A stretch of DNA of 64,000 nucleotides from positions 1 through 64,000 of the forward strand of contig JAWBRA010000006.1 of the NCBI GenBank assembly GCA_038844785.1, written 5' to 3'. The first letter of the stretch is position 1. Each line of letters opens with the position of its first letter. The position numbers and the translations under genes are program-made. The stretch is from Candidatus Caldarchaeum sp. (GTDB taxonomy: Archaea; Thermoproteota; Nitrososphaeria_A; Caldarchaeales; Caldarchaeaceae). Shown here piece after piece: positions 2,620 through 47,565 of this stretch. Under the pieces are notes generated by a model that worked only from the letters and a program-made list of their open reading frames with translations, did not search any database and was not told where the DNA came from.

Positions 2620-3445
2620 CTGAGACCCCGAAAAGAGGCTTATAAACCTCTCGGGAGAGAAGTAAGAAGGTTCTACGTCGATGTTCACTGGTCTGCAAAC
2701 GGTGGACATAGAGCGAAGCCACACATCGTCTTTGACGGACATCAGTATGTTATGACGGCTCGTCTTGTGGATGTTCCCGTAGCCGAAGGCGATGAGGTTT
2801 ACCTCGACGTCGTGCATCCAGCCATGTATGACAATGTTTCAGCGCTCCTCAGCCGTGGTGTCAGGGTTTTCAGGTTGAGGAGGACGGACCTAATAGCCGC
2901 TTACAGAAACAGGCTGTCGCTGTACAAGAACGATGAAAACGATGCCAAAGTATTATCGATGATGGGTCGAGATTGTTTCAAGGAAGTTACCGCGGAATAC
3001 GTTGAGCTTATGAAGCTCATCGACGAATACCATAAACAGCTTAACCTTCTGAAGTTGGTGAAGCAGTTTAAAGCATCCGCAGAGGCGGTGAATCTTTTCC
3101 GCAAAAACAAGCAGAGGGTGGCACGTCAGATAATAAGTATGGCGACGAACACAATAAGCATATACAGGCCTTTATGCGAAACTCTCGGTTTATCAGATGA
3201 CTCTCTATGGTAAGGTTGCTCTCGCAGACCTTCTTCTACACGTAGACTTTACGGCTAAGCTGAGAAGCATTCTATGCTACACCGGACTCTATAAACCCAA
3301 CAACGGAAGATACAACCATCGACTGAAACAGGCTGTCCAATCCCTAGCAATCAGCCACTACAGGAAAAACAAGGTCAAAGCCAAGGAAGTCAGACAACTG
3401 CTGAGAAAAATCAAGAACTACGTCAGAGCTGGAGGCCCGGCCTGA
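2620..3445 (+). pseudogene. Compact IS110-family (DEDD RuvC-like + Nop/Tnp20-like) recombinase/transposase, frameshifted near 3200
   Basis: Open frame from 2620 with FYVDVH, EVYLD and KNDENDAKVL (cf. IS110 KTDxxDA), then a coiled coil. After a slip in a CT repeat: ILCYTGLYKP..GRYNHRLKQAV (cf. L.AY.GL.P...GN..LR). Confidence 0.7.
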
Positions 3446-3590
3446 CAGCGGGGAAAAGCCGGATGAAGGCCGGGCAATAGCAGGGCGAACGCCTTTGAGG
3501 TGATTTAACAGCAAATGCACGGTTTTCATTCGGCTTCTCAGACGCTGTCGGATGACGGGCCTCCAGCCAAACTCTCCTCTCTATTTTTAC
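3428..3590 (+). ncRNA. IS110-associated 3' structured RNA candidate, copy A
   Basis: Long interrupted hairpin closed by GCTGGAGGCCC (3428-3438)/GGGCCTCCAGC (3557-3567), followed by a pyrimidine/T tail; homologous to copies B-D. Confidence 0.6.
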
Positions 3591-4995
3591 TCTTAAAATT
3601 TTTATAGACCGGCGACCAAAACCCCGCCGAGCCGGAGTAGGCCAGTCTGATAGAGAGAAATACTGCGAGTACTGAAACGACCACCAAAGTCGCTGCTGTT
3701 AGAGCCCACCAGTTGTCGCGGGTGTAGTTCACCGTGTAGCTGTGCGACGGCTTGGCCAAAGGTTTTTCGTCAACGGCTCTGACCCGCGGGTTGAATGGGA
3801 AAGCTTTCTTCATAGTCTCCAAAGCGTAGTAAGCCGGGCTGAACATAAATATCCTAAGCTGTGGGAAGCCGTCCATTATGTCTTCCAACGGATTTTCGAC
3901 CTTATGTGGAACATCTCCGAGGCCACGGTAATCGCTCCAAAAGTTCCCAACACCTTCGAAAGTCCATGTAACGCTTGGGTTTCGCTCGCCCACCACAACT
4001 ATCTGCTGAAGATTCTCGACGAAGTTGTTAGCGTACATCACACCTCCCGACTGTCCGTCTATCCAAACGCCTATGTAGTTGAAGGCAACTGTGTTGTTTC
4101 TTATGAGCTGGAACATACGAGGTGGGTAAGGCGAGTATTCGATGACAAACCCGTTTACGTGCCCGTAGATGAGGTTTCTTTCAACTGTTAGGTTTCCAGA
4201 CTCTCTGAGAAAGATACCTTCGCTGACAGCCTCCCCCTTGTTTTCCTTGACTATGTTGTTTGCAACATACAGGTTGTAGGAGTACATGAGAGCGAGGCCG
4301 ACAAGGTTATGGCTTACTATGTTGTCTGCTATCGTGTAGTTATAAGAGTACATCAGATGTATGCCGTACCTAGAGCGGGTTATTATGTTTCCTTTTATCG
4401 TTGTGTTGTATGCGTGTTCGTTGTATATTCCGTCTTTGCTGTTTGTTATACGGTTGTTGATGACGGTTGTGTTGAAGGTGTACCAGAGATATATTCCATG
4501 TCCTCTTTCGTTAATGTCCTTGTTAGCGAAGCTTTCTAAAGTGTTGTTCTCTACCACGGTGTTTCTGGATTTCAGAAGGTAGACTGGGAAAAGAGCGTTT
4601 ATGATCACGTTGCCTATTATTCTGCCGTTGTCGCCTTTGATCTTTATCCCAGCCGCCTCCATCGAGATGTCGGGGTTGGAGTTGATGATCTTTAAGCCTG
4701 AGATAGTGACGTTGTCGGCTTCAACGACAATGACGTCGCTCACGTAGTTTCCGTCGATAACCGGGTAACCCACGCCTTTCAAGGTCATTGTTTTCCTGAT
4801 TACTATCGGCCCACAGTAACGTCCCTGCTCAATAATTAAAACTCCTCCATGAGGTGTTTCGTCGACCATTTGCTGGAGCGTTGTGTTGCTGCAGGCTTGT
4901 TGCTGGCCGCCGATGGCCTCTACTACGGCCGCTAAAGCCAGCAGACAGATGGTAGCGTAGACGAGCGGCTTTCCTCCAGCCTTAGACGACCTCAC
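3538..4995 (-). CDS. nosD: Nitrous oxide reductase maturation protein NosD
   Basis: Beta-helix repeats, RGHGIYLW, RYGIHLMYS, GNFWSDY; C-terminal TM helix. The last ~25 codons run into the IS110-like element. Confidence 0.9.
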   Translation of the reverse strand: MRSSKAGGKPLVYATICLLALAAVVEAIGGQQQACSNTTLQQMVDETPHGGVLIIEQGRYCGPIVIRKTMTLKGVGYPVIDGNYVSDVIVVEADNVTISGLKIINSNPDISMEAAGIKIKGDNGRIIGNVIINALFPVYLLKSRNTVVENNTLESFANKDINERGHGIYLWYTFNTTVINNRITNSKDGIYNEHAYNTTIKGNIITRSRYGIHLMYSYNYTIADNIVSHNLVGLALMYSYNLYVANNIVKENKGEAVSEGIFLRESGNLTVERNLIYGHVNGFVIEYSPYPPRMFQLIRNNTVAFNYIGVWIDGQSGGVMYANNFVENLQQIVVVGERNPSVTWTFEGVGNFWSDYRGLGDVPHKVENPLEDIMDGFPQLRIFMFSPAYYALETMKKAFPFNPRVRAVDEKPLAKPSHSYTVNYTRDNWWALTAATLVVVSVLAVFLSIRLAYSGSAGFWSPVYKNFKSKNREESLAGGPSSDSV

Positions 4996-5582
4996 CTTCT
5001 TCTCCTAAACTTTGCAATTATATTCGGCGGTATTTGAATCATAGCAGCCGCTAACGGGAGGAAGAAGGCTGGCCCTAAGTAGCTAGCGATCTTGAAGTTC
5101 GCTATCTCGTAGTAGCCGAAGAAAGGCGGGTCAAAGGGCTCTATCTTGACTGGAGCGCTTGGATGAATGGTGTGAGTGTAGTTGTAAAGCCAGCTGTAGA
5201 TGTAAGCTGGGGTTGCGACAACCAAAACTAGGTAGACAATCCACAGGAGTGTATGAGCTTGTTTCTTGTGTCTCAGAAGCCCTGTCAAAACTGTGAGAAG
5301 GGTTAGAACTCCGTACAGGGGCTGCAGGTAAACCGTCTCAATTATTTTCTCAGGCTTGATCTCGCCAAGCCCCACATAGTGGTTGACTATGTTAACCTCG
5401 TTAACATCGCCATGAATTCCGGTTAAGGGTATGACGACTACTTCAAGCCATCTCTGGGCGTACATCGGTGCGTTCAACCTTATCGTCCACAGAGGCAGCG
5501 GTAAAGATAACAAAACTAAAACCGCTGGGATTACTGTGAAGAGCGTTAGCTTTCTATAGTTGATTCGGTATGTTTCAACCAT
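4992..5582 (-). CDS. NosB-like membrane protein of clade II nos clusters
   Basis: PLWTIRLNAPMY, NIVNHYVGL, PPFFG...IANF motifs; multiple TM segments; lies between nosL and nosD. Confidence 0.75.
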   Translation of the reverse strand: MVETYRINYRKLTLFTVIPAVLVLLSLPLPLWTIRLNAPMYAQRWLEVVVIPLTGIHGDVNEVNIVNHYVGLGEIKPEKIIETVYLQPLYGVLTLLTVLTGLLRHKKQAHTLLWIVYLVLVVATPAYIYSWLYNYTHTIHPSAPVKIEPFDPPFFGYYEIANFKIASYLGPAFFLPLAAAMIQIPPNIIAKFRRRR

Positions 5583-6081: not shown

Positions 6082-6091
6082 GTATTCTTGG

Positions 6092-8143
6092 TTACGCAGG
6101 CTCTACCTCGAGCCAGCCAGCCATCTCGAGGTGCAGAGGTGAGCAGAACTCTATGCAGTAGAAGCAGTAGACACCCGGCTTGTCGGCTGTGAACTCTATG
6201 GTTGCTGTCTCTCCAGGCTCGATGCTTGCTATGATGTTATATTCTGAGAGGGCGAATGCGTGCGTCGCGTCTCTTGCTGTTTCTACGTTGGTTATGTGTA
6301 GTCTGACAAGGTCTCCTGCCTTACATCTGATTATGTCAGGTGTTATTGTGCTTCTTATCTCCGTCGCCCAGACCTCGGTCACCCATCTTCCACCCTCCTG
6401 ATGCCTGTGTATTCGTTCCTTGCCCTTTTCTGTGGCGTTCGGGTCTTTCTCGAAGGTTTCGGGGTTTGTTCCGACGGGATAGACTTCCAATGGCTTGAGC
6501 TTGCTCGCCAGAATCATTTTCGCGTAGTGAGGCTCCCCTATTCCTATGGGCATGTCATACAAAAGCTCCATCTTCTCACCCGATATGTCTATCAGCTGGA
6601 AGTTCTGAGGTAGCAGTGGACCTATGTTCATGAACCTGTCCAAAGACCATTTGTTCAAGGCTACAAGATACTTGCCTTTCGGGCTGGGTGAGTCGCTCTC
6701 AGGCGTGCACAGGTGGCCGATGTTATAGTGTATCTTTATCCGGTCCACGAGCTTGAATGGGTTTGGACCCGTGTAGTCTGGAGGCCCTAACGTATACTTG
6801 TTGACCTCGTTGCCTATGAAGGTGCTTACATACCCGTGTCCTTTGTCGTCGAACTCGTTGTGCAAAGGCCCTAGAGCCGTCTCTATCTGCGCTGCTTTTG
6901 CATCCTCGAAGCGTATTATGGGGACGCCGTACGGGTCTGTTCCCTCAAACCTTTTGTCGGCTATGGCGCTTTTGATTTTCTCAACGTCGTATATCGTGAC
7001 AACTGGCGAAAGCTTTCCGCCGATGACGACGTATCTGCCACTCGGCGACATGTCGCATCCGTGTGGACTCTTGGGTTCGGGGACGAAGAACAGCACACCT
7101 TCTTTCACCGCGGTTTCGAGAGTGACGACTTTAACGCCGTTCATCTCAACAGCTTTACCAGCTCTAACGAGCTCCTCAGCTTTCTTCCAGTTGATAACAT
7201 GCAGGTAGTCGAAGTCACGTTGCGAGGCTCCGACTTCAAGCGGCGGCCGTCCCTCCAAAACACCGCCGATGGCTCTCTCTGTGTTTATGGAGTTTGTGAA
7301 GGCAAACCCGTCCGAAGGACCCCAGCCCACGATCTCAAGGTCCTGCATGTATGGTGGAAGCTCTATCTGGAAGCTTCTGGCCAGGTCAAACCGGCCTTTA
7401 GCCCTGTCGAAGGCTATGAAACTTGCACAGCCTCTGAAGTAGTCGGCGAAGTTCTTTTCAGTCAACGGAACGTATGTCACGCCTGGTTTGTATCCTTTAC
7501 CTGGCTCCCATGGAGCTGGGAACTGGCTCATACAAGCTACGTATTCGGTGTTGGGTGTAGTGCATGCTCCACCGTGCTGTGTCTGTGTGTTAGGCAGCTT
7601 AACGATGTCTTTCGTCTCGAAGTCTCGGAGGCTTATGGCTGCCATTCTAGCATTCAGCTTATCTCCTATGAACAGCCATTCGCCGACATACTCTGCGTTT
7701 CTCCTGTCAAACTCTGGATGATGTGTGTCACCCATAGTTAACAACCTCACTCCGTTACTGCCCTTTTCAAGCAGCCGCATTGTCTTCACGTCACCGTAAC
7801 CATATCCCTGCCAAGGCTCCACAGTGTAAACAGCTATCACTTTCAAGAGCCTCATCGAAGGAACGCCTATGACGAGAACCTGTCCCGAATGCCCACCCGA
7901 TGAAAACATAACAAACTCGTCATATACTCCTCCCGGCACATACGTCTTGAGAGCTGCGACTGCATGGGCTGTGGTCAGTTTACGCTCTGTTATGACTTTT
8001 TCAACGGCTGCCGCGACAGGCGGTGCCGGCGGTGTGATAAACCTTCCCGCAGTGAATCCTGCAGCAGCTCCAACAACAACACCTGCACCCAAAGCTGATA
8101 TAAGCTTCCTACGACTCACTTTGGTCTCCTTAACCACACCCAT
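6092..8143 (-). CDS. nosZ: Nitrous oxide reductase (clade II-like) with Tat signal
   Basis: SRRKLI Tat motif, SGGHSGQ, DTHHP, PKSPHG, GPLH, GEPH, CuA motif CIEFCSPLHLEM. ATG at 8143 preferred over 8197. Confidence 0.97.
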   Translation of the reverse strand: MGVVKETKVSRRKLISALGAGVVVGAAAGFTAGRFITPPAPPVAAAVEKVITERKLTTAHAVAALKTYVPGGVYDEFVMFSSGGHSGQVLVIGVPSMRLLKVIAVYTVEPWQGYGYGDVKTMRLLEKGSNGVRLLTMGDTHHPEFDRRNAEYVGEWLFIGDKLNARMAAISLRDFETKDIVKLPNTQTQHGGACTTPNTEYVACMSQFPAPWEPGKGYKPGVTYVPLTEKNFADYFRGCASFIAFDRAKGRFDLARSFQIELPPYMQDLEIVGWGPSDGFAFTNSINTERAIGGVLEGRPPLEVGASQRDFDYLHVINWKKAEELVRAGKAVEMNGVKVVTLETAVKEGVLFFVPEPKSPHGCDMSPSGRYVVIGGKLSPVVTIYDVEKIKSAIADKRFEGTDPYGVPIIRFEDAKAAQIETALGPLHNEFDDKGHGYVSTFIGNEVNKYTLGPPDYTGPNPFKLVDRIKIHYNIGHLCTPESDSPSPKGKYLVALNKWSLDRFMNIGPLLPQNFQLIDISGEKMELLYDMPIGIGEPHYAKMILASKLKPLEVYPVGTNPETFEKDPNATEKGKERIHRHQEGGRWVTEVWATEIRSTITPDIIRCKAGDLVRLHITNVETARDATHAFALSEYNIIASIEPGETATIEFTADKPGVYCFYCIEFCSPLHLEMAGWLEVEPA

Positions 8144-11465: not shown

Positions 11466-11826
11466 TTACCCGACTATTACTTTTTCCTTTTTTCTTGGTT
11501 TTTTCTTAATGTTCTGTTTCAATAGGGAATCTGTCTCTGTTCTCGTATGTTTTATGGCATATGCTGCAGAATGATTGTCCTCTGTTATACTGTGGCTGAA
11601 TACCTGAGGGTATAAAAGGGGATTCCTCATATTCTTTATAGGTGAGTCTTGGTATTCCATCCTCAACCCATAGGTCTATTCTAATCTCTCTTCTGTAGTT
11701 AGCCTCGTAATCAAGCAGGTTTTTAAACATGCTGGGTATTCTAAGCTTAAAGCCCGCAGTAACGTCGTATCTTCCTTTAAACACCTTGCCTTTAACATAG
11801 TCTCCTTTGTCGGGTATGTTTAAGGA
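11466..11826 (-). pseudogene. Degenerate 3' fragment of a zinc-ribbon protein gene (copy 1)
   Basis: LNIPDKGDYV...YNRGQSFCSICHKTYENRDR...KKKPRKK; frameshifted; homologous to 17545-17880. Confidence 0.6.
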
Positions 11827-11852
11827 TGGTAAGCCGTCTCCGAGAGAGGCGG

Positions 11853-12060
11853 GTCATACAGACATCTCAGAAAGTTCTTCGGACTCTTCAAAGGAAGGGG
11901 GTCAACAAGTTCTACAGCAAAACAGCGAGACAGGCGCTTTAAAGGCTTACAACAGCAGTTCTGAACAACACACCACAAAGCAAAAGACGAAGAAAGAATC
12001 CTACGGAGAATCTGGAAGACTGTTAAGGAGACCCGGGAAAGGCTGGAGGCGCATGCCTGA
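11853..12060 (+). pseudogene. C-terminal remnant of the IS110-like recombinase
   Basis: Translates across shifts to SYRHLRKFFGLFK..NKFYSKTARQAL*RLTT..KAKDEERILRRIWKTV, aligning with 3197-3445 (YTGLYK..NGRYNHRLKQAV..KAKEVRQLLRKI). Confidence 0.65.
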
Positions 12061-12215
12061 ACAGCAGAGAAAAACCACTCTGGAAAAGCCGGCCCACCTA
12101 TAAACAGACCGTATCAAATAGATATGGCCCCGAGGTTATTAGTCGGCCTTTCTCATGGGTTTCCTTGATGTTGTTCTGGTTGACTGCCTCCAGCCAACTC
12201 TCCCCTTATTTTTTC
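12041..12215 (+). ncRNA. IS110-associated 3' structured RNA candidate, copy B
   Basis: Closing stem GGCTGGAGGC (12041-12050)/GCCTCCAGCC (12186-12195); inner GCCGGC/GTCGGC stem; two-stranded internal loop; apical hairpin; T-rich tail. Confidence 0.6.
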
Positions 12216-12288
12216 ATCTTTTAATTTAAATGTTGAATGAAAACCCCACCTTATCCAGCAAAACATAAGAGTTTAACTATAGGGTTGT

Positions 12289-12744
12289 ATGATTTACCAA
12301 CGTATGAGTGTGCAGGCTCCTGGGGTCGGGAGGATTAGGATTTTGTTGGCGAAGCCGGGGTTGGACGGTCATGACAGGGGGCTTCTCATCTTAGCCAGAG
12401 CTTTTAGGGATGCGGGTTTTGAGGTTGTTTACGGCGGAATACTGAGAAGCCCCGAGGAAGTTGTTGAGACAGCTATTCAGGAGGATGTTGACGTTGTTGC
12501 GTTAAGCCTCCACAACGCCGACCACATCCCAAACTTCATCAAGGTGGCGAGGCTTTTGAGGGAGAAAGGTGCTGGAGACATTTTGGTAGTGGGCGGCGGG
12601 ATAATTCCACCAGAGCACAAACCAATCTTGGAGAGGGAGGGTATTTCAGGGAACTTCGGCCCCGGAACGCCGCTCCAAACAATCATAGACCATATCGTCG
12701 AAAGGGTGAAGAGGGAGAGGTGGGGAGAAGCTAAACAGACCTGA
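12289..12744 (+). CDS. Acyl-CoA mutase cobalamin-binding small subunit (IcmB/MCM C-terminal domain)
   Basis: KPGLDGHDRG B12-binding motif, SxH, GGGIIP. Confidence 0.93.
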   Translation: MIYQRMSVQAPGVGRIRILLAKPGLDGHDRGLLILARAFRDAGFEVVYGGILRSPEEVVETAIQEDVDVVALSLHNADHIPNFIKVARLLREKGAGDILVVGGGIIPPEHKPILEREGISGNFGPGTPLQTIIDHIVERVKRERWGEAKQT

Positions 12745-12806
12745 CATGAGGTAAGGTTCCTCACATCGGTGGATGGTTTCGAGCGGCTGGGATGTCGGCA
12801 GCGTTT

Positions 12807-14588
12807 TTAGATTATGACTGGTTCACGCCATGTTCCGAACACTTCCCGCCCTACGTTCATAATCTCCTCCAACGACGCATAGCTTCTTACGGCTTCTAGT
12901 ATGTATGGCATGACGTTCACGTCCTCGCGTTCAAAGGCTTTGCGGAGGTTTTCAAGAGCTTTCCGCACTCTTTCGTTATCCCTTTCCCTCTTCACCTGCT
13001 GAAGCCTTTCAACCTGCTTCTTGGCAACGCTTTCGTCGACGACAAGATATCTGATGGGCTGGTCTTCTGGGATGGTGTATTTGTTGACGCCGACCAGGAC
13101 CTCTTCACCGCTCTCGATAGCCAGCTGCGTCCTGTAGGCTGCTTCATGAATCTCCCGCTGTGGGTAGCCTGCCTCTATAGCCGCAAGCATTCCGCCAAGC
13201 TCGTCAATTTTCTGGAAATACTTTAACGCGTCCTCTACCATTTGTTCGGTGAGCCATTCAACGTAGTAGGAGCCTGCCAACGGGTCTATGGTGTCAGCCA
13301 CACCTGTCTCCTCGGCGATTATCTGCTGCGTCCTCAACGCGACGAGGACAGCCTGCTCCGTTGGAAGGGCCCAAGCCTCGTCGTAGGAGTTTGTGTGCAG
13401 GGACTGTGTTCCACCTAAGACAGCCGCTAAAGCTTCTATGGCTGTCCTGATTATGTTGTTGAGGGGCTGCTGCCATGTGAGGGACGCTCCAGAGGTCTGT
13501 GTGTGGAAGCGTAGTGTAAGCGACCGTGGGTTTTCGGCGCCATAAAACTCTTTCAACACGGTCGCCCACAGCTTTCTCGCCGCCCTGAATTTAGCTATCT
13601 CCTCGAAGAAGTTGATGGTTGAGTTGAAGAAGAAGGAGAAATGGGGGGCGAAGCTGTCAACTTTCATGCCCGAGCTTAGCCCTAGGTCTACGTAGGTGAA
13701 CCCGTCCATCAGGGTGAAGGCAAGCTCCTGCAGCGCTGTGGCTCCAGCCTCTCGTATATGGTAGCCGCTGATGCTGATGAAATGCCAGCGTGGCATGTTT
13801 TTGACGCAGAAATCCATCATATCCCTTATTATTCGCAGGTGGGCTTCGGGTGTGAAGGCCCACTCCTTCTGAGCTATAAACTCCTTTAGAATGTCTGTCT
13901 GGGTTGTTCCGCTCAGCATGCGTATTGGAACCCCTTGTTTCTCGGCGACGACGATGAGCATGGCCAGCAGAACAGCTGCGGGAGCGTTTATCGTCATAGA
14001 GACGCTCACTTTGTCCAAAGGTATTCCGTTGAAAACTATCTCCATGTCCTTCACAGTAGCTACAGAGACGCCGCATTTACCAACTTCTCCCTCGCTCCGA
14101 GGGTTGTCTGGGTCGTATCCGTATAGTGTTGGCATGTCGAAGGCAACGCTCAAACCAGTTTCACCGTGCTCCAGCAAGAAACGGAACCGTTGGTTGGTGT
14201 CCTCGGGCGTCCCGAATCCGGCGAACTGTCTCATAGTCCAAAGCCTTCCCCTATGCATCGTGGTGTATATGCCTCTTGTGAAGGGATGCCTGCCTGGAAA
14301 ACCTAAGTCAAGTCCGTAGTCTAGCCATCTAACGTCGAGAGGTGTGTACAATGGTTTGACAACAAACCCCGAAGATGTTTTGAAGATTTTCTTCCTTTCA
14401 CCTGTTGCTGCGGCTGTATGGGCGTAGCTTTCCTCCCAGTCTTTTACGCTACGTTCAAGCTTTTCTAAAACATCATCACGGAACATTGGCGAGGTTTGAC
14501 GACGTTCGTTCAGAAAACTAATCTTCTCATTCCAGTAGCTGAGACGTCTTTCACTGAATTGCCGCAGCCTATCAGATAACCCGCCCAC
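12807..14588 (-). CDS. Acyl-CoA mutase large subunit, isobutyryl-CoA mutase-like (IcmA)
   Basis: WTMRQFAGF, GTTQTDILKEFIAQKEW, ISISGYHIREAG, GGTQSLHTN. Confidence 0.92.
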   Translation of the reverse strand: MGGLSDRLRQFSERRLSYWNEKISFLNERRQTSPMFRDDVLEKLERSVKDWEESYAHTAAATGERKKIFKTSSGFVVKPLYTPLDVRWLDYGLDLGFPGRHPFTRGIYTTMHRGRLWTMRQFAGFGTPEDTNQRFRFLLEHGETGLSVAFDMPTLYGYDPDNPRSEGEVGKCGVSVATVKDMEIVFNGIPLDKVSVSMTINAPAAVLLAMLIVVAEKQGVPIRMLSGTTQTDILKEFIAQKEWAFTPEAHLRIIRDMMDFCVKNMPRWHFISISGYHIREAGATALQELAFTLMDGFTYVDLGLSSGMKVDSFAPHFSFFFNSTINFFEEIAKFRAARKLWATVLKEFYGAENPRSLTLRFHTQTSGASLTWQQPLNNIIRTAIEALAAVLGGTQSLHTNSYDEAWALPTEQAVLVALRTQQIIAEETGVADTIDPLAGSYYVEWLTEQMVEDALKYFQKIDELGGMLAAIEAGYPQREIHEAAYRTQLAIESGEEVLVGVNKYTIPEDQPIRYLVVDESVAKKQVERLQQVKRERDNERVRKALENLRKAFEREDVNVMPYILEAVRSYASLEEIMNVGREVFGTWREPVII

Positions 14589-17210: not shown

Positions 17211-17544
17211 TACCTCAGACAGCTTCTTTTCAATATATAAGGAATGCGGCTGGAAGCCTCTCACACATACTATTAGACTACTTTATTAGCCTAATCACCG
17301 AAGCCTAATAACAAAGTTCAACAGATGTTGTTTGATTTTATAGCATATGGTTAAAAGCAAACGGTCAAAAGGTCAACCTTCGTCTGATAAAAACCCTTGG
17401 GTCATAGCCAGCGCCGTGTTCAAAATACATGCTCAACAAGCAGAAACATCTGTTGAACAAGCTTATAGGGTTCCTGAACAACGCAGGCTACACGTCAAAA
17501 ACCATCAATAAAATCAAAAACGGAAGCCTAACCATGAATTAGAT

Positions 17545-17880
17545 AGTTGATTTATCTCTCTTTCTTCTTGTTTTTTCCTTAATATTCTGTTGCAGTTGGG
17601 GCATTTATCTCTATTAGAGAAGGTTTGACAGCATCTTCTACAATACCATTCTCCCTGTCATAATTTGGTTGACGGTCTGAAATGGGGGCTCCTTATGTCC
17701 TTCATAGCTGAAAAATGGTATTCCGTTTTTAACCCATAGGGCTATTCTAACCTCTCTCGTCGTTAGCCTCTAAATGGAACAGCGGTTTATACATGTTCGG
17801 TGTTCTAAACCTCCATCACGCTGTAATGTCATATCTCCCTAACAACACCTATGTAGTCTCCTTTATCGGGTATGTTTAAA
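17545..17880 (-). pseudogene. Degenerate 3' fragment of a zinc-ribbon protein gene (copy 2)
   Basis: Nucleotide similarity to 11466-11826; encodes GEWYCRRCCQTFSNRDKCPNCNRILRKK; several frameshifts and stops. Confidence 0.6.
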
Positions 17881-18142
17881 GACCGCCAAACAGTTATAGG
17901 TAGTTTAAGCCTCATAGAACCTGTTACATACTATCCTAGCCGCATGATACTCGGTTTTTGGAAAGAAAATATCTAATGTAGGCTGTCCATCCTGCTGACA
18001 GGGCTGCGGCTATGGCCCAGTACGTTGTTTTCACGTCCAGCGTCGTTCACCTCTGCGACGTACAAGTGGAATACCGTGCTGCTCATGTTTCGTTCTACGC
18101 CGTACTGGATGGCTTAGCGTAGCTGTTTCTCCAGTTACTCTT

Positions 18143-39903: not shown

Positions 39904-41085
39904 ATGAGAACGCTTAAAGCATTTGATAAGCTTTTAACAGTCAGCTTGGGTAGGATACTGCTGGGGACGAGCGGCTGGAGCTACGACGAATGGGTCGGGC
40001 CTGTTTACAAGAGTAAGAACGAGCCGAAGTTAAGGCGATACAGCAGCTTCTTCAAAACAGCTGAGATGGATTCAAGCTTCTACGCATATCCGAGAAAGGA
40101 GACGGTCATGGCCATGGCCGACAACGTTCCCGAATATTTCGTGTTCACGGCGAAGGCGCCGCAGGAAGTAACCCACAACCTCAAGCTGGATGTAAGGGCT
40201 GGAGCCGACAAAGCCCTTCAGAGATTCACGGAGGTTATGAGGCCGTTGAACAACGCAGGCATGCTTGGATGCATACTTCTCCAGCTTCCGCCTAAGATGG
40301 AGAACAACCCCGAAAAGCTGGAAACATTCCTCGAAGCCGTTGACAAAGACTTCAGATATTCCGTCGAGTTCAGACATCCATCATGGCTCAACGAACAAAC
40401 ATACAGAATACTGGGGAAGAACAATGTTGCCTACACAATCGTCGACGAGCCTCTGCTGCCGCCGACAGTGAAGGTTACAGCAGACTTTGCGTACGTTAGA
40501 TGGCATGGAAGAGGGAGTGAGCCATGGTACAACTATCTCTACAGCGTTGAAGAGCTTGTGGAATGGGTTCCAAGGCTGACAGCTGTTGCCGAGAAAGTTG
40601 ACGTCGTGTACGGGTATTTCAACAACCACTTCCACGGATACGCCGTCTACAACTGCGTACAGGTTTTGGAAATGCTCGGCCTTGCAGAGGAAAAGCATGC
40701 AAACCTCAAGCAGCAGATAGAGAACTACTTCGACATGATGGGTCTGGAGAGGACGGGGGCCCGGGACGATTTTACAAGGCTTCTCTCCATGTTTGTGGAC
40801 AGGCGGCGGCTTGAACGTGCGTCGGAGATAGCTGTGGAATCGGTCACCGTGTTGGAGGACGACGGAGCCAGAATTAGGGCTAAAGTGAAAGAATACACGG
40901 TAGAGATAGACACCGCGTCCAAGAGAGTTTACCACGACTGTCAAGACTGGGCTAGGACGTCAAAAAACAAGAAGCTATGCAAACATGTGGCAAAACTGCT
41001 CGAAACGCTTCCCAGAGAAAGGGCAGCGCAAATGCTTAGAAGCATGGCTGAGGATGCAGAAACCTGGCGGTTCGACACAACTTAA
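39904..41085 (+). CDS. DUF72 family protein fused to a SWIM zinc finger
   Basis: LGTSGWSY, EMDSSFY, VEFRHPSW, YVRWHG, YFNNH; C-terminal HDCQDW...LCKH. True start may be ~39946. Confidence 0.88.
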   Translation: MRTLKAFDKLLTVSLGRILLGTSGWSYDEWVGPVYKSKNEPKLRRYSSFFKTAEMDSSFYAYPRKETVMAMADNVPEYFVFTAKAPQEVTHNLKLDVRAGADKALQRFTEVMRPLNNAGMLGCILLQLPPKMENNPEKLETFLEAVDKDFRYSVEFRHPSWLNEQTYRILGKNNVAYTIVDEPLLPPTVKVTADFAYVRWHGRGSEPWYNYLYSVEELVEWVPRLTAVAEKVDVVYGYFNNHFHGYAVYNCVQVLEMLGLAEEKHANLKQQIENYFDMMGLERTGARDDFTRLLSMFVDRRRLERASEIAVESVTVLEDDGARIRAKVKEYTVEIDTASKRVYHDCQDWARTSKNKKLCKHVAKLLETLPRERAAQMLRSMAEDAETWRFDTT

Positions 41086-41197
41086 TGAGACACTGAGCCG
41101 CTGCGTGGAGTTTTCACTATTTTGTTGATTGTTTCTACGTCTTTTTTGAAGTCGAGGCAGCCGTGTGGCAGCAGGCCACCGCCGAACGATTTAGGGA

Positions 41198-41352
41198 GGG
41201 TTGCTCTCAAGGGGTGAGAGCAGAGAGACATGATGAGCCTGCATAGGAAGGCGGCGAAAAAGTTTTTCCACAAACCCCATGTCGGCACCGTCAAAAGCAT
41301 AGAAGGAATCACAGTTCTCAGGCTGGCGGAAACCCTCCACAACATACTCAAA
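41198..41352 (+). repeat. 155-bp direct repeat, copy 1 (154/155 identical to 63659-63813)
   Basis: GGGTTGCTCTCAAGGGG...CAACATACTCAAA; carries a truncated copy of the gene starting at 63691. Confidence 0.95.
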
Positions 41353-41470
41353 CGGCTTGGAGGAGATACTTAAACGTCTTGACAGACATTGGGCGGAGCT
41401 CCTCAAGCTTAGGGAAGACATGCTACAAGGATTCAGAAGACATGATGATCGGGTAACGGGAAAACTTTAA

Positions 41471-41630
41471 GGAAAAAAAGGGGAGGGTTTGGCTGGAGGC
41501 AACCAGCAAGACAGCATCAAAGAACCCCAAAGAGAGGCCGGTACGTTTGGGTATGTGTCATGTATGGGTTTTACACCTATACACGTTAAATCGTTCGTCA
41601 TACCGGCTTTGGGGTTTTTCTCTGCTCTCT
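41471..41630 (-). ncRNA. IS110-associated structured RNA candidate, copy C
   Basis: GCCTCCAGCC + pyrimidine tail; GCCGGTAT/GTACCGGC stem enclosing two symmetric 15-nt loop strands (GAC-N9-AAC) and an apical hairpin. Confidence 0.6.
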
Positions 41631-41764
41631 AAGCCGGTTGTAGCTTCTCACACATCTAACTCTCTCCACGTCAACGTAATGCAGGCCCGCCTCTCAACAA
41701 GCATCCTAACCCTCTCCTCCAAGTCTGGAGCCCGCCTGTAAGTTATCAACGCAGAGGAAGCGTT

Positions 41765-41855
41765 GTGGAGGTTTATGAGCTTTTACAGTAGCCAGGGCCG
41801 ACGGCATTAACACCGCATTGATAGAGCTTAAGTGGAGGTTTATGAGCTTTTACAG
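41765..41855 (+). repeat. 24-bp direct repeat GTGGAGGTTTATGAGCTTTTACAG x2 with a 43-bp spacer
   Basis: Identical copies at 41765-41788 and 41832-41855; the second overlaps the pantoate kinase stop codon. Confidence 0.9.
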
Positions 41856-42770: not shown

Positions 42771-42772
42771 GC

Positions 42773-43510: not shown

Positions 43511-43574
43511 AGCGATATCTATATAGTTTTGTGTCTGAAAACCTTTTCCTATATAGTTTATAGTGTCACAATTT

Positions 43575-44069: not shown

Positions 44070-44090
44070 CCAACACGAGTTGTAAAAAAC

Positions 44091-44315: not shown

Positions 44316-44394
44316 CGCTGAAAAAAGGAGCTTAACGCGAGGTAAAAAACATGCTTAAGCTGGCGGGGAGAATATCTGTTCAATTGCCTTACTG

Positions 44395-45672
44395 CTATGT
44401 TATGTTTGCTCCCAGCCTTTTCAGGTCTTCGAGGAAGCCGGGGTATGAGACATCCGCCGACTCCATCCCTAAAACTCTTAGCCCTTTACTTAACGCCAGG
44501 CCTAAGGCTGTGAAAGCCATGAAGAGCCTGTGGTCGCCGTGGCTGTCTAGCAAAACACCGCCCTCAATATCCTTACTCCCCTCTATGACAAGCCCGTCAT
44601 GCTCTTCTTTCACGTTGACCCCCAGCTTTCTAAGCTCTGTGGCAACGGCTGAGATGCGGTCGCTCTCCTTCAACCGTGCGTGAGCAACTCCATACAGCCT
44701 GACAACCCCGTCGTTCAAAGCCGCCATGACCGCGGCTACTGGAAGCAGGTCAGGACTGTCTGTAAGCCTAAACTCAACGTCAACGTCTTTTGTACGGCCC
44801 TCAACCTCTATTCTCCCGCTTCCCACTATTATCCTCGAGCCGAAGGATTCGGCTATGTGTAGGATGGCCGAGTCTGCCTGAGGCATCTGCATGCCTAGGT
44901 TTGTGATTGTAGCACGTCCGCCTGTTAGGTGGGCAGCCGCTATTATGAAGGCTGCTGAACTGAAGTCGCCGGGGATTGTGAAGTCCGCTCCCTGAAGGGT
45001 TTGAGGTTCTACGGTGAATTGTCTAAACCCTTCCACGCCTATTTTTCCTCCGAAAATCTCCACCATTTTTATGGTTGCCTCGACATAAGGTTTTGAAACA
45101 AGCTCGCCTTCAACGGAAACGGTAACTTGATGGGATGCTCTGAGGCCTGTCAGGAGGAGGGATGTTACATACTGCGATGATTCTGAGCCTTTTATCGACG
45201 TCCATCCTCCTTCCACTCCTCCGCCCTTAACCACAACGGGAGCCGTTCCAGAACCTCGTGTAGACCAGCACTCCACGCCAAGATCTCTGAGCGATTGGAG
45301 AAGAGGGCCTAAGGGCCTTCTTCTGATGCTTTCGTCTCCCGTGAGGATGGTGTAGCCTTTTTCTACGAGAGCTGAAAGACCGGTGTATATCCTGAGCGTC
45401 GTCCCCGAGTTCATCACGTTAATAACGTCTTCGGGACAGTGGAATCTCCTGACCCCTTTTATCTCTAGAAAATCGTTTCCCTGTTTTATTTCAACGCCCA
45501 GCATCTTTGAAGCGTTGATTGTTGCCTGTGTGTCGCGTGAGATGAGCGGTTTTCTAACGATAGATTTTTCCTCGGCAAGGCTTGCGAGGGCGACTGCCCT
45601 ATGGGTGTAGCTTTTGCTGGGCGGTGCTTCAACAACACCTTCAACCTTAGAAGGCTTTACGGAGACCGTCAT
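44395..45672 (-). CDS. aroA: 3-phosphoshikimate 1-carboxyvinyltransferase
   Basis: PPSKSYTHR, NSGTTLR, SSQY, PGDFSSA, RLKESDR, DHR. Confidence 0.96.
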   Translation of the reverse strand: MTVSVKPSKVEGVVEAPPSKSYTHRAVALASLAEEKSIVRKPLISRDTQATINASKMLGVEIKQGNDFLEIKGVRRFHCPEDVINVMNSGTTLRIYTGLSALVEKGYTILTGDESIRRRPLGPLLQSLRDLGVECWSTRGSGTAPVVVKGGGVEGGWTSIKGSESSQYVTSLLLTGLRASHQVTVSVEGELVSKPYVEATIKMVEIFGGKIGVEGFRQFTVEPQTLQGADFTIPGDFSSAAFIIAAAHLTGGRATITNLGMQMPQADSAILHIAESFGSRIIVGSGRIEVEGRTKDVDVEFRLTDSPDLLPVAAVMAALNDGVVRLYGVAHARLKESDRISAVATELRKLGVNVKEEHDGLVIEGSKDIEGGVLLDSHGDHRLFMAFTALGLALSKGLRVLGMESADVSYPGFLEDLKRLGANIT

Positions 45673-46526
45673 GGTTCATCGCCTACGGGGCTGGGGTTTA
45701 TCCGACATTTGATTACCCTGCCTTCGAAGGATTGGAAGGCTTCAAAAACCCTCTCAACATCCTCCTCCCTGCATATTGCGGCGACCGCGGGCCCCGTCCC
45801 GGACAACCCTGCAGCCAGCGCACCAGCACGTAAGGCCTGTAAAGCAGGCTGCGTAGGCAGTCCAAGAGCCGCTGAATGTATTAAGCCGTTCAGAGTCATG
45901 GCTTTCCAGTAATGCCCTTCGTAAGCGAGGTTGAAGGCTAGCAGGGCAAGCTCTCTCACCGGCTCGAGCAGCTCTTTCCTAAAGTGTTTGGTGTATGTTT
46001 TGCCGGGTGGTATGTATATGACCGTCATCAAGCCGCTGTCCACATAATCTCTCTTCAGTATTTTTCTTTCATGGTTGTTTGTTACGACTACTCCACCCAG
46101 CATGCAGGCTGCAGCGTCGTCTAAAGCACCTGTTATCGAAGTGCCTGAGCGTATTGAGGCTTCTGCAACAAGCTTTAGAAACTCTTCCGCCGGCAGTTTC
46201 CCGTCAACTGCGTTGAGAAAAGCTTTGGCAATCGCAACCGCTGCCGAGCTTGAGCTCTTAAGCCCAACAGCCATCGGTATCTCAGACTTTGTCGAAACCC
46301 TGCATCCATTGACCGATACTCCTAAACGCTGGGCGAAAACCCTAACAACTTCCTCCGCCAGCTGCGGGTCTGACCTCACACCGTTGATCTCAAGCACAAA
46401 CGAATTGCTCGACGTCAGTTCGAGGAAAGCCTCTGTCTGGAGGTTTATTCCAAGCGCAGCTCCATAACCTGTTGAGATAGCGTTCACTATTGACACGGCT
46501 CCGTACGCTTTTCCGACACCCCTCAT
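45669..46526 (-). CDS. aroK: Archaeal shikimate kinase (GHMP)
   Basis: IVNAISTG.G, GLKSSSSAA, SITGALDDA, GLSGTGP. Confidence 0.93.
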   Translation of the reverse strand: MRGVGKAYGAVSIVNAISTGYGAALGINLQTEAFLELTSSNSFVLEINGVRSDPQLAEEVVRVFAQRLGVSVNGCRVSTKSEIPMAVGLKSSSSAAVAIAKAFLNAVDGKLPAEEFLKLVAEASIRSGTSITGALDDAAACMLGGVVVTNNHERKILKRDYVDSGLMTVIYIPPGKTYTKHFRKELLEPVRELALLAFNLAYEGHYWKAMTLNGLIHSAALGLPTQPALQALRAGALAAGLSGTGPAVAAICREEDVERVFEAFQSFEGRVIKCRINPSPVGDEP

Positions 46527-47359
46527 TTCTCGAACACCTTGAGCGCGTTCACCACGGCTTTCTCCATCACCTTACGGTCGGGCTCTATGCCCAACCATAT
46601 CTTCAAAGCTTCAGCCCCCTGCGCCACAAGCATCTTGACACCATTTATCGTCTTCGCACCCTTGGCCTTGGCTGTTTTGAGAAGCTTTGTCTCGACAGGG
46701 TTGTAGACCATGTCGAACACGGTCATGTTGCTGTGAAGCAGCTTGCCCGGTATGGGTGTTGAGTTGGTGTTTGGATACATGCCGACGGGTGTGGCGTTTA
46801 TCAACAGCTCTGTTTCTCTCATTATATCCTCCAGCTTCATCGAGCCGAATTTGACAAACCTGCATCCCACCCCCTTTCTCTCCGCAAACCTCTTGAACAT
46901 TTTCATGGTGCTAGCTCTTCTTCCGACGAAAACCACATCTCTGAACCCGCGTTTCTTCAAAGCTATGGCTGCGGCTCTGGCGGCTCCGCCCACGCCCAAC
47001 ACAACAACGTTTCCGTCAACCTCCTGCTGGGAGGGGATGACAGCCAGAACGCCTGCAACATCAGTGTTATAACCCACAAGCTTTCCGCCCTTTATCTTCA
47101 CGACGTTCACCGCCTCAACCTCTCTGGCCGAGGTCTTAAGCTCGCTGAGATGCTTTATGATGGTGACTTTGTGAGGGATGGTTACGTTGAAGCCGAGAAA
47201 ATTCATCAAAGGTGCTGAGCTGCAGAAAGCCTTCAGGTCCCGTGGCTTCACCTCAACGGGGATGTAGAAAATTTCCTCAACCCCAGCGTGACGCAACGCC
47301 GCGTTAACCATCGCTGGAGAAGCAGTGTGACCAATAGGATAGCCGATGACGCCGAGCAA
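46523..47359 (-). CDS. aroE: Shikimate dehydrogenase
   Basis: GYPIGHTASP, NVTIPHK, GYNTD, GVGGAAR, NATPVGM, DMVYNP. Confidence 0.95.
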   Translation of the reverse strand: MLGVIGYPIGHTASPAMVNAALRHAGVEEIFYIPVEVKPRDLKAFCSSAPLMNFLGFNVTIPHKVTIIKHLSELKTSAREVEAVNVVKIKGGKLVGYNTDVAGVLAVIPSQQEVDGNVVVLGVGGAARAAAIALKKRGFRDVVFVGRRASTMKMFKRFAERKGVGCRFVKFGSMKLEDIMRETELLINATPVGMYPNTNSTPIPGKLLHSNMTVFDMVYNPVETKLLKTAKAKGAKTINGVKMLVAQGAEALKIWLGIEPDRKVMEKAVVNALKVFEK

Positions 47360-47440
47360 GCCAGACCTCAGCCAGCCACCACCCTCCTAAGCCCTCCCCA
47401 ACCAGCCTGTATCTGCGAGTGCAGTATTTAATCTTCTGGA

Positions 47441-47565
47441 AGGAAAAAACAAGGGGAGAGTTGGCTGGAGGCAACCAGCAGAACAACATCAAGAAACCCA
47501 CAAGAAAGGCCTACTGATACAGCCGGGCCATATCAAATAGATACAGACTGTTAAACGTAGGGGAA
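47441..47565 (-). ncRNA. IS110-associated structured RNA candidate, copy D (5'-truncated)
   Basis: Closely similar to the reverse complement of 12100-12215, with different loop sequences. Confidence 0.55.

Follow-up and report, generated by a model that had tools for sequence, protein, structure and literature searches.

A bridge or seek RNA is a feature of the IS110/IS1111 insertion sequences, reportedly described by Durrant and colleagues in 2024. The stem-loop TIGR-Tas systems, as presented by Faure et al. (2025, PMC12045711), have an effector, TasR, with a RuvC domain, a coiled coil and a Nop-like domain, and a guide unit that combines a closing stem and a central hairpin with two ~9-nt spacers. 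In these tigRNAs, the tandem spacers are directed at opposite strands of neighbouring DNA segments, the guide may overlap the 3' end of the coding sequence, and the natural targets are stated to be difficult to identify. Finally, Sugahara et al. [quoted passage not shown] In the portion of that paper considered here, the insertion is a putative transposon for which a pNOB8-like integrase and a plasmid origin are proposed, and an RNA, the protein fold and a guide-target relation are not described.

The window analysed here, 64,000 nt from a member of the Caldarchaeales (genome of 1,736,080 bases), contains four dispersed repeats that probably represent mostly decayed guide-RNA copies of a selfish DNA element from hot-spring archaea. 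The 'a + b' insertion, which shares with this element the GC-rich region, the ORF beside a tRNA, the repeated tRNA 5' fragment, the new intron and the presence of several copies, very probably belongs to the same family; P0124, a protein of C. subterraneum, and the HR01 type A protein share 69% identity. The repeats were found where the original prediction had placed them, namely copy A (3428-3590, +), copy B (12041-12215, +), copy C (41471-41630, -) and copy D (47441-47565, -). The annotated features are as follows.

2615..3600, +, core of the copy A element, a decayed type A element with a conserved left-end motif, ORF remnants, RNA and tail (BLAST, contig breaks)
2620..3445, +, TasR/IS110-like ORF of copy A in two frames, 2620-3213 and 3158-3445 (stop-to-stop ORFs)
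3428..3568, +, copy A RNA, from 5' arm to 3' arm (consensus fold of seven type A copies; covariance model, 53 bits)
3479..3487, +, 5' spacer of copy A, 9 nt, flanked by constant AT and AA (variable column block of the type A alignment)
3505..3513, +, 3' spacer of copy A, 9 nt (reverse complement patterned like a tRNA anticodon loop, GTT)
11484..11823, +, left-end module 'X' of the copy B element (BLAST)
11506-11853, -, small ORF carried by the 'X' module (ORF list)
11857..12040, +, C-terminal remnant of the type B ORF of copy B, the leader and most of the ORF being deleted (BLAST, reading frames)
12042..12195, +, copy B RNA, type B, with a tail to ~12215 (consensus fold; covariance model, 133 bits)
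12095..12108, +, 5' loop strand of copy B (consensus fold)
12128..12143, +, 3' loop strand of copy B (consensus fold)
41491..41644, -, copy C RNA, type C, ORF absent and 5' arm degenerate (covariance model, 43 bits)
41585..41599, -, 5' loop strand of copy C (sequence)
41545..41559, -, 3' loop strand of copy C (sequence)
41465..41490, -, tail of copy C, C-rich and then a T-run (sequence)
47441..47565, -, copy D, a type B RNA of which the 3' two-thirds remain, with loops, hairpin, 3' strand, a 3' arm at 47463-47472 and a tail (BLAST)
47548..47562, -, 5' loop strand of copy D (sequence)
47513..47527, -, 3' loop strand of copy D (sequence)

Common to all four copies are the 3' arm GCCTCCAGCC and, after it, a tail that is first C-rich and then T-rich; in each, two loop strands lie between an inner stem and an apical hairpin, as predicted. 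The 5' arm GCTGGAGGC pairs with the 3' arm in copies A and B; its proposed loss holds for copy D, whereas in copy C the arm is merely degenerate. The four repeats do not, however, represent one scaffold: their stem sequences differ and define three sub-families, A (copy A), B (copies B and D) and C (copy C), into which the other copies in the genome also fall. A 12-mer of the 3' arm occurs 38 times in the genome, and BLAST with three RNA queries gave ~35-40 copies, a count in which some copies lie at contig ends and one repeat may have been counted twice.

The copies in the window are relics. By BLAST, copy A is homologous to further type A copies from 2602-2615 to about 3591-3597, and contigs from public DNA runs break at 2615 and 3428. 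Its ORF is frameshifted; both parts can be aligned to the L002 type A protein and to the family alignment but have no match in Pfam or NCBIfam, and the 5' arm of the RNA overlaps the final codons. In copy B, the ORF is reduced to a short C-terminal remnant which, together with the RNA, is 81% identical over 363 nt to a full type B copy on contig C12 (BLAST). The 'X' module preceding this remnant is a ~390 nt repeat with ~40 copies, and its small ORF had no match in a Pfam search; public DNA-run contigs break at 11487, in this module, and at 12215, where the tail ends. Copies C and D consist of RNA without an ORF. Copy D, which also lacks the 5' arm, is 87.7% identical to type B over 81 nt (BLAST) and gave no covariance-model match at E <= 0.01.

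Consensus folds depict the RNA as a long rod of ~140-165 nt, with a closing stem, an internal loop of ~13 x 13 nt and an apical hairpin, that starts within the last codons of an ORF of 270-300 aa and ends at a T-run. A covariance model built on nine copies from this genome and run on 85 related loci and the window located the RNA directly after the ORF in 75 of the 85 loci and recovered copies A, B and C. In the alignment of these 75 loci, which was fitted to the model and has antisense rows among its sequences, 90.9% of the cells are paired (69.6% when shuffled and 36-49% when slid), and compensatory changes affect 47 of the 51 pairs, a value as high being reached in none of 500 shuffles. The hypervariable loops differ more between copies than the stems do, with mean pairwise identities of 0.52 versus 0.89 among nine type B copies and 0.65 versus 0.94 among seven type A copies. 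Loop length is fixed, and constant boxes (AU...AA, CC...YAG and GAC...UUUAAC) flank the variable 9 nt; the TTTAAC/ATAAAC motif does recur, as had been noted, but it is such a box beside the spacers and not part of the variable guide. Neither the consensus folds nor the covariation alignment contained a second internal loop.

The proposal that the loops covary with the insertion flank was borne out in the related loci for both loop strands. In 8 of 27 related loci, an exact match of at least 9 nt to the reverse complement of the 3' loop strand lies downstream of the element (1.6% in a swapped-loci control), and in 5 of 18 the 5' loop strand itself has such a match upstream (control, 2.3%). These matches are 12-19 times more common than in the control and orientation-specific, the remaining three orientations being at control level. 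In the relatives, the 5' loop strand is identical to a sequence on the element's left, and a sequence on its right is complementary to the 3' loop strand. Loci L086 and L068 contain both half-sites, ~1.6 kb apart, with 5-7 nt common to both junctions. Collectively, these observations support a conserved scaffold with programmable loops for the family as a whole. The link between loops and flanks finds no support in the window copies themselves: none of the four has a convincing match to its own flanks, and among the type B and C copies of this genome the 3' loop strand has a downstream match of at least 9 nt in only 2 of 20, with none for copies B, C and D of the window. The best target-like match of the copy B 3' loop strand, 14/18 to a tRNA intron on contig C28, was equalled in 2 of 60 shuffles. 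One might regard the RNA only as a structured 3' end with unconstrained loops, serving a multicopy gene as terminator or stability element, given that it ends in a T-run and that flank matches are missing in the window. We disfavour this reading as very improbable because it does not account for the orientation-specific matches at 12-19 times the control level, the fixed loop length with constant boxes beside the 9 variable nucleotides, or the exact 9/9 matches of spacers to tRNA genes found in two genomes.

The tRNA matches concern type A, in which the two half-sites abut on opposite strands of a tRNA gene and together extend from the D-stem 3' strand to the anticodon loop. For three copies in this genome, the reverse complement of the 3' spacer matches, at 9/9 or 8/9 positions, the anticodon loop of a tRNA located ~130 nt downstream, and the same is true of both HR01 loci. 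With both spacers considered, the guide on contig C9 matches at 17/18 positions once a 30-nt intron is removed, and does so equally in 10 related genomes whose tRNA-Lys has no intron; in G034, guide and spliced tRNA-Lys(CTT) agree at 17/18, and the guide on contig C1 reaches 15/18 without gaps. Several type A copies (those on contigs C2, C24, C47 and C12, and copy A of the window) do not match the adjoining tRNA; the spacers of copy A jointly match, by eye, 14/18 of the intron-less tRNA-Asn on contig C12. The 5' spacer is in the tRNA sense and the 3' spacer is antisense, and therefore the spacers read opposite strands. This also bears on whether the RNAs could be box C/D-like sRNAs that guide 2'-O-methylation of tRNA, as the complementarity of type A 3' spacers to anticodon loops, the predicted Nop-like domain of the protein and the GAUGA-like and CUGA-like motifs near the type A closing stem might indicate. 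A 5' spacer in the tRNA sense cannot pair with the tRNA itself, the loop strands of the other sub-families match DNA on either side of the element, the N-terminal domain retains its acidic residues, and the RNA is ~140-165 nt long, compared with ~60 nt, all of which renders this explanation scarcely credible.

The tRNA adjoining a type A element usually has an intron of ~30 nt within the 5' half-site, and all six tRNA genes with an AT-hairpin intron in the D-arm lie just downstream of a type A RNA. On contig C9, positions 1-22 of tRNA-Lys are repeated directly 2.14 kb upstream, with the left junction at the 5' edge of the target rather than at its centre. An empty, intron-less site is present in the related genome G009, where the same flanks enclose an intact tRNA-Lys and no element. 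In G006, an identical element and guide adjoin an intron-less, fully matching tRNA-Lys, and therefore either the intron is dispensable for coexistence or the G006 copy is inactive. An intact 18-mer target was not found in the genome studied here, which is compatible with homing but equally expected by chance.

The protein of 270-300 aa has no sequence match in Pfam, NCBIfam or PDB. An AlphaFold model (pLDDT 86, pTM 0.82) predicts a RuvC nuclease domain, a coiled coil and a Nop-like domain, and the best structural match in VIA-align is TasR (9mty_A; Z 15.6, 243 residues), with IS621 and ISCro4 at Z 14.4-14.5 over 256-258 residues (IS110/IS1111 comparison structures 8wt6, 8wt9 and 9t56), the Nop domain of TasH at Z 12-13 and Nop5 at Z 7.5; Foldseek agreed. 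The predicted fold is thus about equally close to TIGR-TasR and to IS110 recombinases. Five aspartates, and no serine, are invariant among 39 family sequences. The original annotation of the ORF as a recombinase is accordingly not supported: the fold suits a TasR nuclease just as well, and there is no conserved serine.

An insertion sequence of the IS110/IS1111 type is nonetheless a possible, if doubtful, alternative. Here, the protein would be a recombinase, not just a nuclease, guided to its target by the single loop of a bridge or seek RNA; the donor ends would be read by a second loop elsewhere (the GC-rich 5' leader, for example) or by that one loop, and strand exchange would occur at a short core common to both loop strands. 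The predicted full-length fold, tied with that of TasR, agrees with this possibility, as do sub-threshold matches to the IS110 DEDD domain in 4 of 21 distant family members, the RNA located 3' of the ORF, as in IS1111 elements, and inside the element, and half-sites flanking the element, with 5-7 nt common to both junctions in L086 and L068. The tandem-spacer geometry is that of the target loop of the IS110 bridge RNA, one loop with two strands specifying the left and right target flanks around a common core. One genome, moreover, holds many copies at different sites, and site-specific recombination was proposed for the 'a + b' insertion (Sugahara et al. 2012, PMC3293823). However, neither IS110 Pfam domain was matched at the gathering score, and the C-terminal domain has no invariant or near-invariant serine, the apparently equivalent position being, by eye, S in ~27 of 38 sequences and otherwise G, N, D or Y. 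Furthermore, the RNA has only one internal loop, with no donor loop found, and LAGLIDADG nuclease genes occupy the same framework: in this genome, LAGLIDADG ORFs are bracketed by this X module on one side and by the 3' arm with its tail on the other, a parallel with protein-guided homing.

With the stem-loop TIGR-Tas systems, the family shares the domain architecture of the protein, the layout of the guide unit, the tandem-spacer geometry of the tigRNAs, with spacers for opposite strands, and the overlap of guide and coding sequence. It differs from them in having a single guide unit per gene instead of the array described for TIGR, additional helices in its 140-165 nt rod, boxes other than the TIGR UG/CG...CNA, a protein without a Pfam Nop match, a multicopy, mobile lifestyle and natural targets that are recognisable in the flanking DNA of the element and in tRNA genes. 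It may already be among the published Tas loci. Stem-loop TasR and TasA are reported to act as repressors in a 2026 preprint (bioRxiv 10.64898/2026.09.09.750476), the TasR being catalytically dead, which offers a precedent for an RNA-guided DNA-binding regulator that represses or tunes a downstream gene or tRNA from its promoter or 5' part. Several 3' loop strand matches indeed fall in AT-rich, TATA-like sequence upstream of downstream genes, and in G006 the element and a fully matching target coexist side by side. We consider this function improbable: the repressor TasRs of the preprint have inactivated RuvC residues, whereas the RuvC aspartates are invariant in the 39 sequences here, and regulation would explain neither the half-sites on both sides of the element nor the existence of filled and empty alleles.

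The evidence thus favours, as the probable explanation, an RNA-guided, TasR-like homing or insertion element of 1-2.2 kb, of which each repeat would be the guide-RNA module, the other parts being the left-end module 'X', often a GC-rich leader, and the protein of 270-300 aa, with one rod-shaped RNA per element. The large internal loop would offer two spacers of ~9 nt, the 5' spacer pairing with one DNA strand at the left half of an ~18 bp target and the 3' spacer with the other strand at the right half. The RNA is presumably transcribed and bound by the protein; public sequencing runs holding the window sequence are DNA runs only, and one RNA-library contig from a relative covers the element from left-end motif to tail and may be carried-over DNA. 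The complex would cut the uninterrupted target, into which the element is then copied, so that it would occupy its own recognition site, as a homing-endonuclease gene does. For sub-family A, the target would be the tRNA gene from the D-stem 3' strand to the anticodon loop; the element would supply its own promoter and tRNA 5' part, and the spliceable intron of ~30 nt that usually splits the 5' half-site may be protective. Homing appears a plausible route of spread, but on its own it leaves unexplained the ~35-40 copies at different sites with different guides.

Beyond the 2012 description of the element, as far as the portion of that paper considered here extends, these results add a probable guide RNA, a predicted protein fold and a relation between guide and target. 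In the better-preserved relatives, the DNA bordering the insertion on both sides is mirrored in the variable loops, and the site is often a tRNA gene that then bears a new intron.

The four RNA repeats predicted in the window were found at the expected positions (listed below), with the common 3' arm GCCTCCAGCC followed by a C-rich and a T-rich tail; the complementary 5' arm is present in copies A and B, degenerate in C and missing in D. In the whole genome (GCA_038844785.1; 1.74 Mb in 57 contigs, 50% G+C; window on contig C6), the 12-mer of the arm occurs 38 times, and BLAST searches with three RNA queries yielded approximately 35-40 RNA copies of three sub-families, here called types A, B and C, a count in which one repeat may appear twice because many copies lie at contig ends, where links between loops and flanks are likewise unreliable. 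The single scaffold of the original prediction holds as one architecture, whereas its stem and hairpin sequences differ among the three types. Rfam gave no match to the window at the gathering score and none to the full element, GC-rich leader included, at E <= 1. At one type C locus (L039; contig C4, ~13840-14180), the 3' strand and the 3' arm are tandemly duplicated, giving two GCCTCCAG arms at a spacing of ~70 nt.

Features of the element in the window and on other contigs (C9, C10, C12, C26) of the same genome
Window, 3428-3590, + strand: RNA copy A, type A
Window, 12041-12215, + strand: RNA copy B, type B
Window, 41471-41630, - strand: RNA copy C, type C
Window, 47441-47565, - strand: RNA copy D, type B
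Window, 11484-11823: X repeat, left end of the element
Window, 17526-17881: further copy of the X repeat
Contig C12, ~40660-41390: GC-rich leader
Contig C9, ~12090-12870: GC-rich leader
Contig C10, ~7150-8073: LAGLIDADG-type ORF of locus L004, downstream of X and running into the GCCTCCAGCC arm and tail
Contig C26, ~13340-13990: LAGLIDADG-type ORF of locus L006, downstream of X and running into the GCCTCCAGCC arm and tail

RNAalifold derived the same long rod from nine type B and seven type A copies, in which a closing stem (9-10 bp) is followed by additional helices, a 'guide stem', an internal loop (~13 x 13 nt) and an apical hairpin. The stems are nearly invariant within the genome. The type B alignment served to build a covariance model, with which the window and 85 related loci were searched. 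In 75 of these loci, the RNA was located immediately 3' of the ORF, with one unit per locus; of the window copies, the model recovered A, B and C and missed D. In the resulting alignment, which was fitted to the model, includes ~20 antisense rows and to that extent favours structure, 90.9% of the cells are paired, compared with 69.6% after shuffling and 36-49% with partners slid, both-sided changes occur in 47 of 51 pairs, and none of 500 shuffles reached the observed values. As predicted, the loops vary far more than the stems, with mean pairwise identities of 0.52 versus 0.89 in type B and 0.65 versus 0.94 in type A. Each type A loop strand reads AT, nine variable bases, AA, and the variable core is framed by the constant boxes CC...TAG or CAG in type B and GAC...TTTAAC in type C; the recurring TTTAAC/ATAAAC motif pointed out in the original prediction is real and represents such a constant box beside the variable core. 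That the RNA is a plain structured 3' end of the upstream gene is a less good fit and, in our estimate, highly improbable.

The RNA is one part of an element that begins with the X module and continues through an often present GC-rich leader, an ORF of 270-300 aa and the rod-shaped RNA to a T-run. The X repeat (~390 nt, ~40 copies genome-wide) carries a small ORF of ~115 aa (11506-11853, - strand) on the strand opposite to the putative nuclease gene, for which Pfam gave no match. The conserved left end contains an 18-nt near-palindrome (2633-2650 in the window, with equivalents in ~15 other copies), the variation of which preserves pairing, G-T combinations included, and which has the look of a BRE/TATA promoter as well; the closest ATG or GTG upstream of the ORF is shifted by one base relative to its frame in several copies. 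In many copies, X and the ORF are separated by the GC-rich leader, which is ~730 nt long, falls into three sequence types and is probably region 'a' of Sugahara et al. 2012. Just upstream of copy A, an ORF (1628-2302, + strand) without a Pfam match contains an SPPY-like motif. Motifs of this kind are typical of DNA N-methyltransferases. Window sequence was present in hot-spring DNA runs and in no RNA run, an absence of reads that is uninformative on expression, and the contig breaks in the DNA runs (2615, 3428, 11487 and 12215) coincide with module borders. A joint of 11507 to 12109 in one DNA run was set aside, its shorter side being 21 letters only. A metatranscriptome contig from a relative (1,078 nt) spans the element from the left-end motif to the tail and is a weak hint of transcription, as it may be carried-over DNA.

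The 5' arm of the RNA overlaps the last codons of the 270-300 aa ORF, the product of which has the conserved ending ...RLEAPA. In the window, this ORF is split into two frames at copy A, reduced to a C-terminal remnant at copy B and lacking at C and D. Searches of Pfam, NCBIfam, PHROGs and the PDB sequences turned up nothing informative for the protein; its relatives, at least 395, all annotated as 'hypothetical', belong to Nitrososphaerota, Caldarchaeum among them, and to a Thermofilaceae bin, and form only 112 clusters among 1.84 billion representative proteins. A confident AlphaFold model based on 39 sequences (pLDDT 86, pTM 0.82) aligned in VIA-align over its full length with the TIGR-Tas nuclease TasR (9mty_A; Z 15.6, rmsd 3.7 over 243 residues; Foldseek E 1.6e-5) and with the IS110-family recombinases IS621 and ISCro4 (Z 14.4-14.5) and, through residues 129-296, with the Nop domains of TasH (Z 12.4-13.4); the match of the C-terminal half to archaeal Nop5 was weaker (Z 7.5). 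The predicted model thus has in common with TasR the architecture of RuvC, coiled coil and Nop-like domain. At the sequence level, a Nop domain was not found in the element protein: Pfam Nop gave no match at E <= 10 for two family members, and there are no precomputed Pfam domains among the 120 homologues listed.

Across the 39 sequences, the N-terminal domain has five aspartates (D20, D43, D62, D67 and D113) and one histidine that never vary. Serine is absent from both the invariant and the 90%-conserved columns of that set, whereas IS110/IS1111 recombinases have a conserved catalytic serine. PF01548 (DEDD) produced sub-threshold matches in 4 of 21 distant members (E 0.01-0.04; 14-16 bits against a cut-off of 29), and PF02371, the C-terminal transposase domain, had no Pfam match in the family members searched. 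Judged by residue conservation, the family looks like a TasR-kind nuclease more than an IS110 recombinase.

To cover the other sub-families, loops were parsed in 35 loci of other genomes and metagenomes; the strict parser handled 20 of 78 metagenome loci, and the flank statistics cover 27 and 18 loci. The predicted link between loops and flanks was borne out in these loci on both sides: the reverse complement of the 3' strand has an exact match of at least 9 nt within 700 nt downstream in 8 of 27 loci (1.6% in the swapped-loci control), and the 5' strand, read forward, has one within 2.45 kb upstream of the ORF in 5 of 18 (2.3% in the corresponding control). The other strand orientations gave 0-2 matches, the level of the controls. 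Two loci, L086 and L068, carry both matches, with half-sites flanking a segment of ~1.6 kb, 5-7 bases common to both junctions, and the two loop strands overlapping on that core. One flank match falls in the 3' half of a tRNA, and most others lie in AT-rich, promoter-like sequence; a regulatory role fits less well and appears improbable. Within the genome under study, the same link was seen in few copies of types B and C, with a downstream match of at least 9 nt in 2 of 20 copies and none for window copies B, C and D, and comparison of the two types with their own downstream 400 nt gave a noisy result.

Loop strands that match the left and right insertion flanks, here in 5 of 18 and 8 of 27 loci against controls of ~2%, are also a property of IS110/IS1111 elements. 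Recombination of the IS110 kind would account better than homing for the core shared by both junctions and for the large number of dispersed copies; bridge RNA has a target and a donor loop, whereas the RNA 3' of the ORF in our element has a single large internal loop, and together with the serine-free conserved columns we regard such recombination as the less likely mechanism.

The type A guides relate to tRNA genes. In three copies of the genome, the reverse complement of the 3' spacer (the nine variable bases of that loop strand) lies 128-136 nt downstream of the 3' arm, with 9/9 or 8/9 positions matching, and these sites are the anticodon loops of the tRNA genes Arg-TCG, Lys-TTT and Met-CAT; all 7 distinct type A 3' spacers show this complement-of-anticodon-loop pattern. 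The 5' spacer is in the tRNA sense, its counterpart in the tRNA being the 3' strand of the D-stem together with the beginning of the anticodon stem. The guide on contig C9 matches 17/18 contiguous positions of tRNA-Lys after removal of a 30-nt insert, and likewise 17/18 in the intron-less tRNA-Lys of ten related genomes. The guide on contig C1 reaches 15/18, ungapped, in a tRNA-Ala encoded on the opposite strand. In archaeon HR01, the tRNA-Leu genes downstream of the two type A-like loci match the 3' spacer at 9/9 and, next to it, four bases of the 5' spacer; one of these guides matches tRNA-Leu(CAG) of our genome at 17/18 (counted by eye), and a guide of genome G034 matches its own spliced tRNA-Lys(CTT) at 17/18. 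For Lys, the lone mismatch would amount to an rU-dG wobble. With the two spacers in opposite senses, only double-stranded DNA, and not the tRNA, can be the target. In box C/D sRNAs, both guides are complementary to the target RNA, whereas the type A 5' spacer has the sequence of the sense strand of the tRNA; a methylation guide is a less good fit and highly improbable. The guides on contigs C2, C24, C47 and C12 and that of window copy A did not match the adjoining tRNA; the last resembles tRNA-Asn(GTT) at 14/18, by eye. A search of the whole genome for an intact two-spacer target in all orientations with gaps of -3 to 15 gave chance-level matches only (16/18), and at zero gap in all loop registers none reached 16/16.

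The tandem-spacer geometry of tigRNAs has been described in these terms (PMC12045711). TIGR-Tas guides have two ~9-nt spacers on opposite strands of adjacent target segments, and type A has 9 + 9 nt; the guides there form a tandem array, whereas here there is a single unit per locus. According to a preprint, tigRNAs carry box D (UG/CG) and box C (CNA) beside the spacers (bioRxiv 10.64898/2026.09.09.750476). These motifs do not flank the spacers of the element RNA, which have AT...AA, CC...TAG/CAG and GAC...TTTAAC instead. Tandem-spacer geometry is also that of the bridge RNA target loop. Collectively, we consider it probable that this is an RNA-guided element of the TIGR-Tas/IS110 kind in which a single guide loop encodes both halves of the target.

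Such an element would spread by homing, the protein-RNA complex cutting the uninterrupted site and the element then being copied in. Homing is favoured by the conserved acidic residues and the lack of a conserved serine, by the position of the element inside its own target, by the existence of an empty allele, and by the use of the same framework by homing-endonuclease genes. The left edge of the element on contig C9, 2.14 kb upstream of tRNA-Lys, carries a second copy of the first 22 bases of that gene, and this left junction is the edge of the target. The tRNA-Lys gene lacks an intron in ten related genomes, one of which (G009) has the left and right flanks of C9 with no element and no RNA match, that is, an empty site; the comparison of empty and filled alleles covers this one site. 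Homing-endonuclease-type elements likewise interrupt or abut their own recognition site and have empty and filled alleles in related genomes. Two LAGLIDADG ORFs (L004 and L006) occupy the space between the X module and the 3' arm and tail of the guide RNAs, and one element framework may carry either a protein-guided or an RNA-guided nuclease.

The half-sites flank the element, and in type A an intron splits the 5' half-site; in tRNA-Lys, this intron is located four bases into it. A homologous AT-rich hairpin intron interrupts the D-arm of six tRNA genes, every one of which is preceded by a type A RNA at a distance of ~60 nt; by eye, a type A RNA also precedes two further tRNA genes with variant introns. 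Another related genome, G006, has the identical element and guide, yet its tRNA-Lys is intron-less, and from this arrangement the intron would be a separate, later gain or loss, unnecessary for coexistence with the element. Tentatively, RNA-guided nuclease cassettes may be what creates non-canonical introns in the tRNA genes of archaea, spreads them and also fragments these genes. In this reading, the guide is aimed at the intron-less gene, with the intron four bases into the 5' half-site, and the homologous introns of the Lys, Met, Arg and Tyr tRNA genes are all situated behind such cassettes; the type B sub-family may in turn target those introns. Compared with tRNA genes, types B and C have exact 9-mers in introns only and none in exons. 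In a shuffle test, 3 of 11 distinct type B guides reach 14-15/18, a score equalled by no more than 2 of 60 shuffles, and none of the 7 type C guides did so, so that an aim of type B at tRNA introns is a weakly supported lead.

ARAGORN found only 27 tRNA genes in the genome, a shortfall attributed to non-canonical introns, and a scan for T-arms was therefore used instead. Many tRNA genes, several Leu genes included, have introns in the D-loop, in the D-stem or after the anticodon stem. The tRNA-Glu(CTC) gene on contig C14 (~46945-47040) has a 16-nt insert after the anticodon stem, 13 bases of which are shared with the 5' arm of the type A RNA. The tRNA-Gln(CTG) gene occurs four times (contigs C1, C26, C33 and C35), in three cases ~150-270 nt beyond a type B RNA and behind a conserved module; the sequence preceding tRNA-Gln(CTG) resembles the 5' loop and hairpin of the type B RNA. 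On contig C12 (~41740-41800), a fragment resembling the D-arm and anticodon stem of tRNA-Thr(GGU) abuts the X of a type B element, whose 3' loop strand resembles the junction sequence with a 4-nt insert.

A tRNA-Thr gene in a natural Caldiarchaeum population has been described with a GC-rich region, an ORF, a repeat of the tRNA 5'-fragment and a new intron at 24/25; an integrase-type mobile element was proposed, and no RNA was reported (Sugahara et al. 2012, PMC3293823). The arrangement is the same as in the type A element of our genome. The element (2012) and the protein fold class and guide architecture (2024-2026) are already known; new here, as we found no description in the literature (the TIGR supplementary tables may list the family), are the family's guide RNA, its occurrence as a single unit, its natural targets as read here and the link to tRNA intron gain.

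TIGR-Tas and IS110-kind RNA-guided proteins are new genome-editing tools, and the present family is compact, with 270-300 aa and one RNA, and comes from hyperthermophiles. The targets of the element can be read from the genome, in its own flanks and in tRNA genes. Natural targets and biological roles of TIGR-Tas are given as mostly unknown in PMC12045711; the spread of tRNA introns by these cassettes, if true, would give a TIGR-Tas-like system its first natural targets and a biological role. The transposon of 2012 would be recast as an RNA-guided element, and the old question of how archaeal tRNA genes gain non-canonical introns and become split would be linked to it in a form that can now be tested at the bench.
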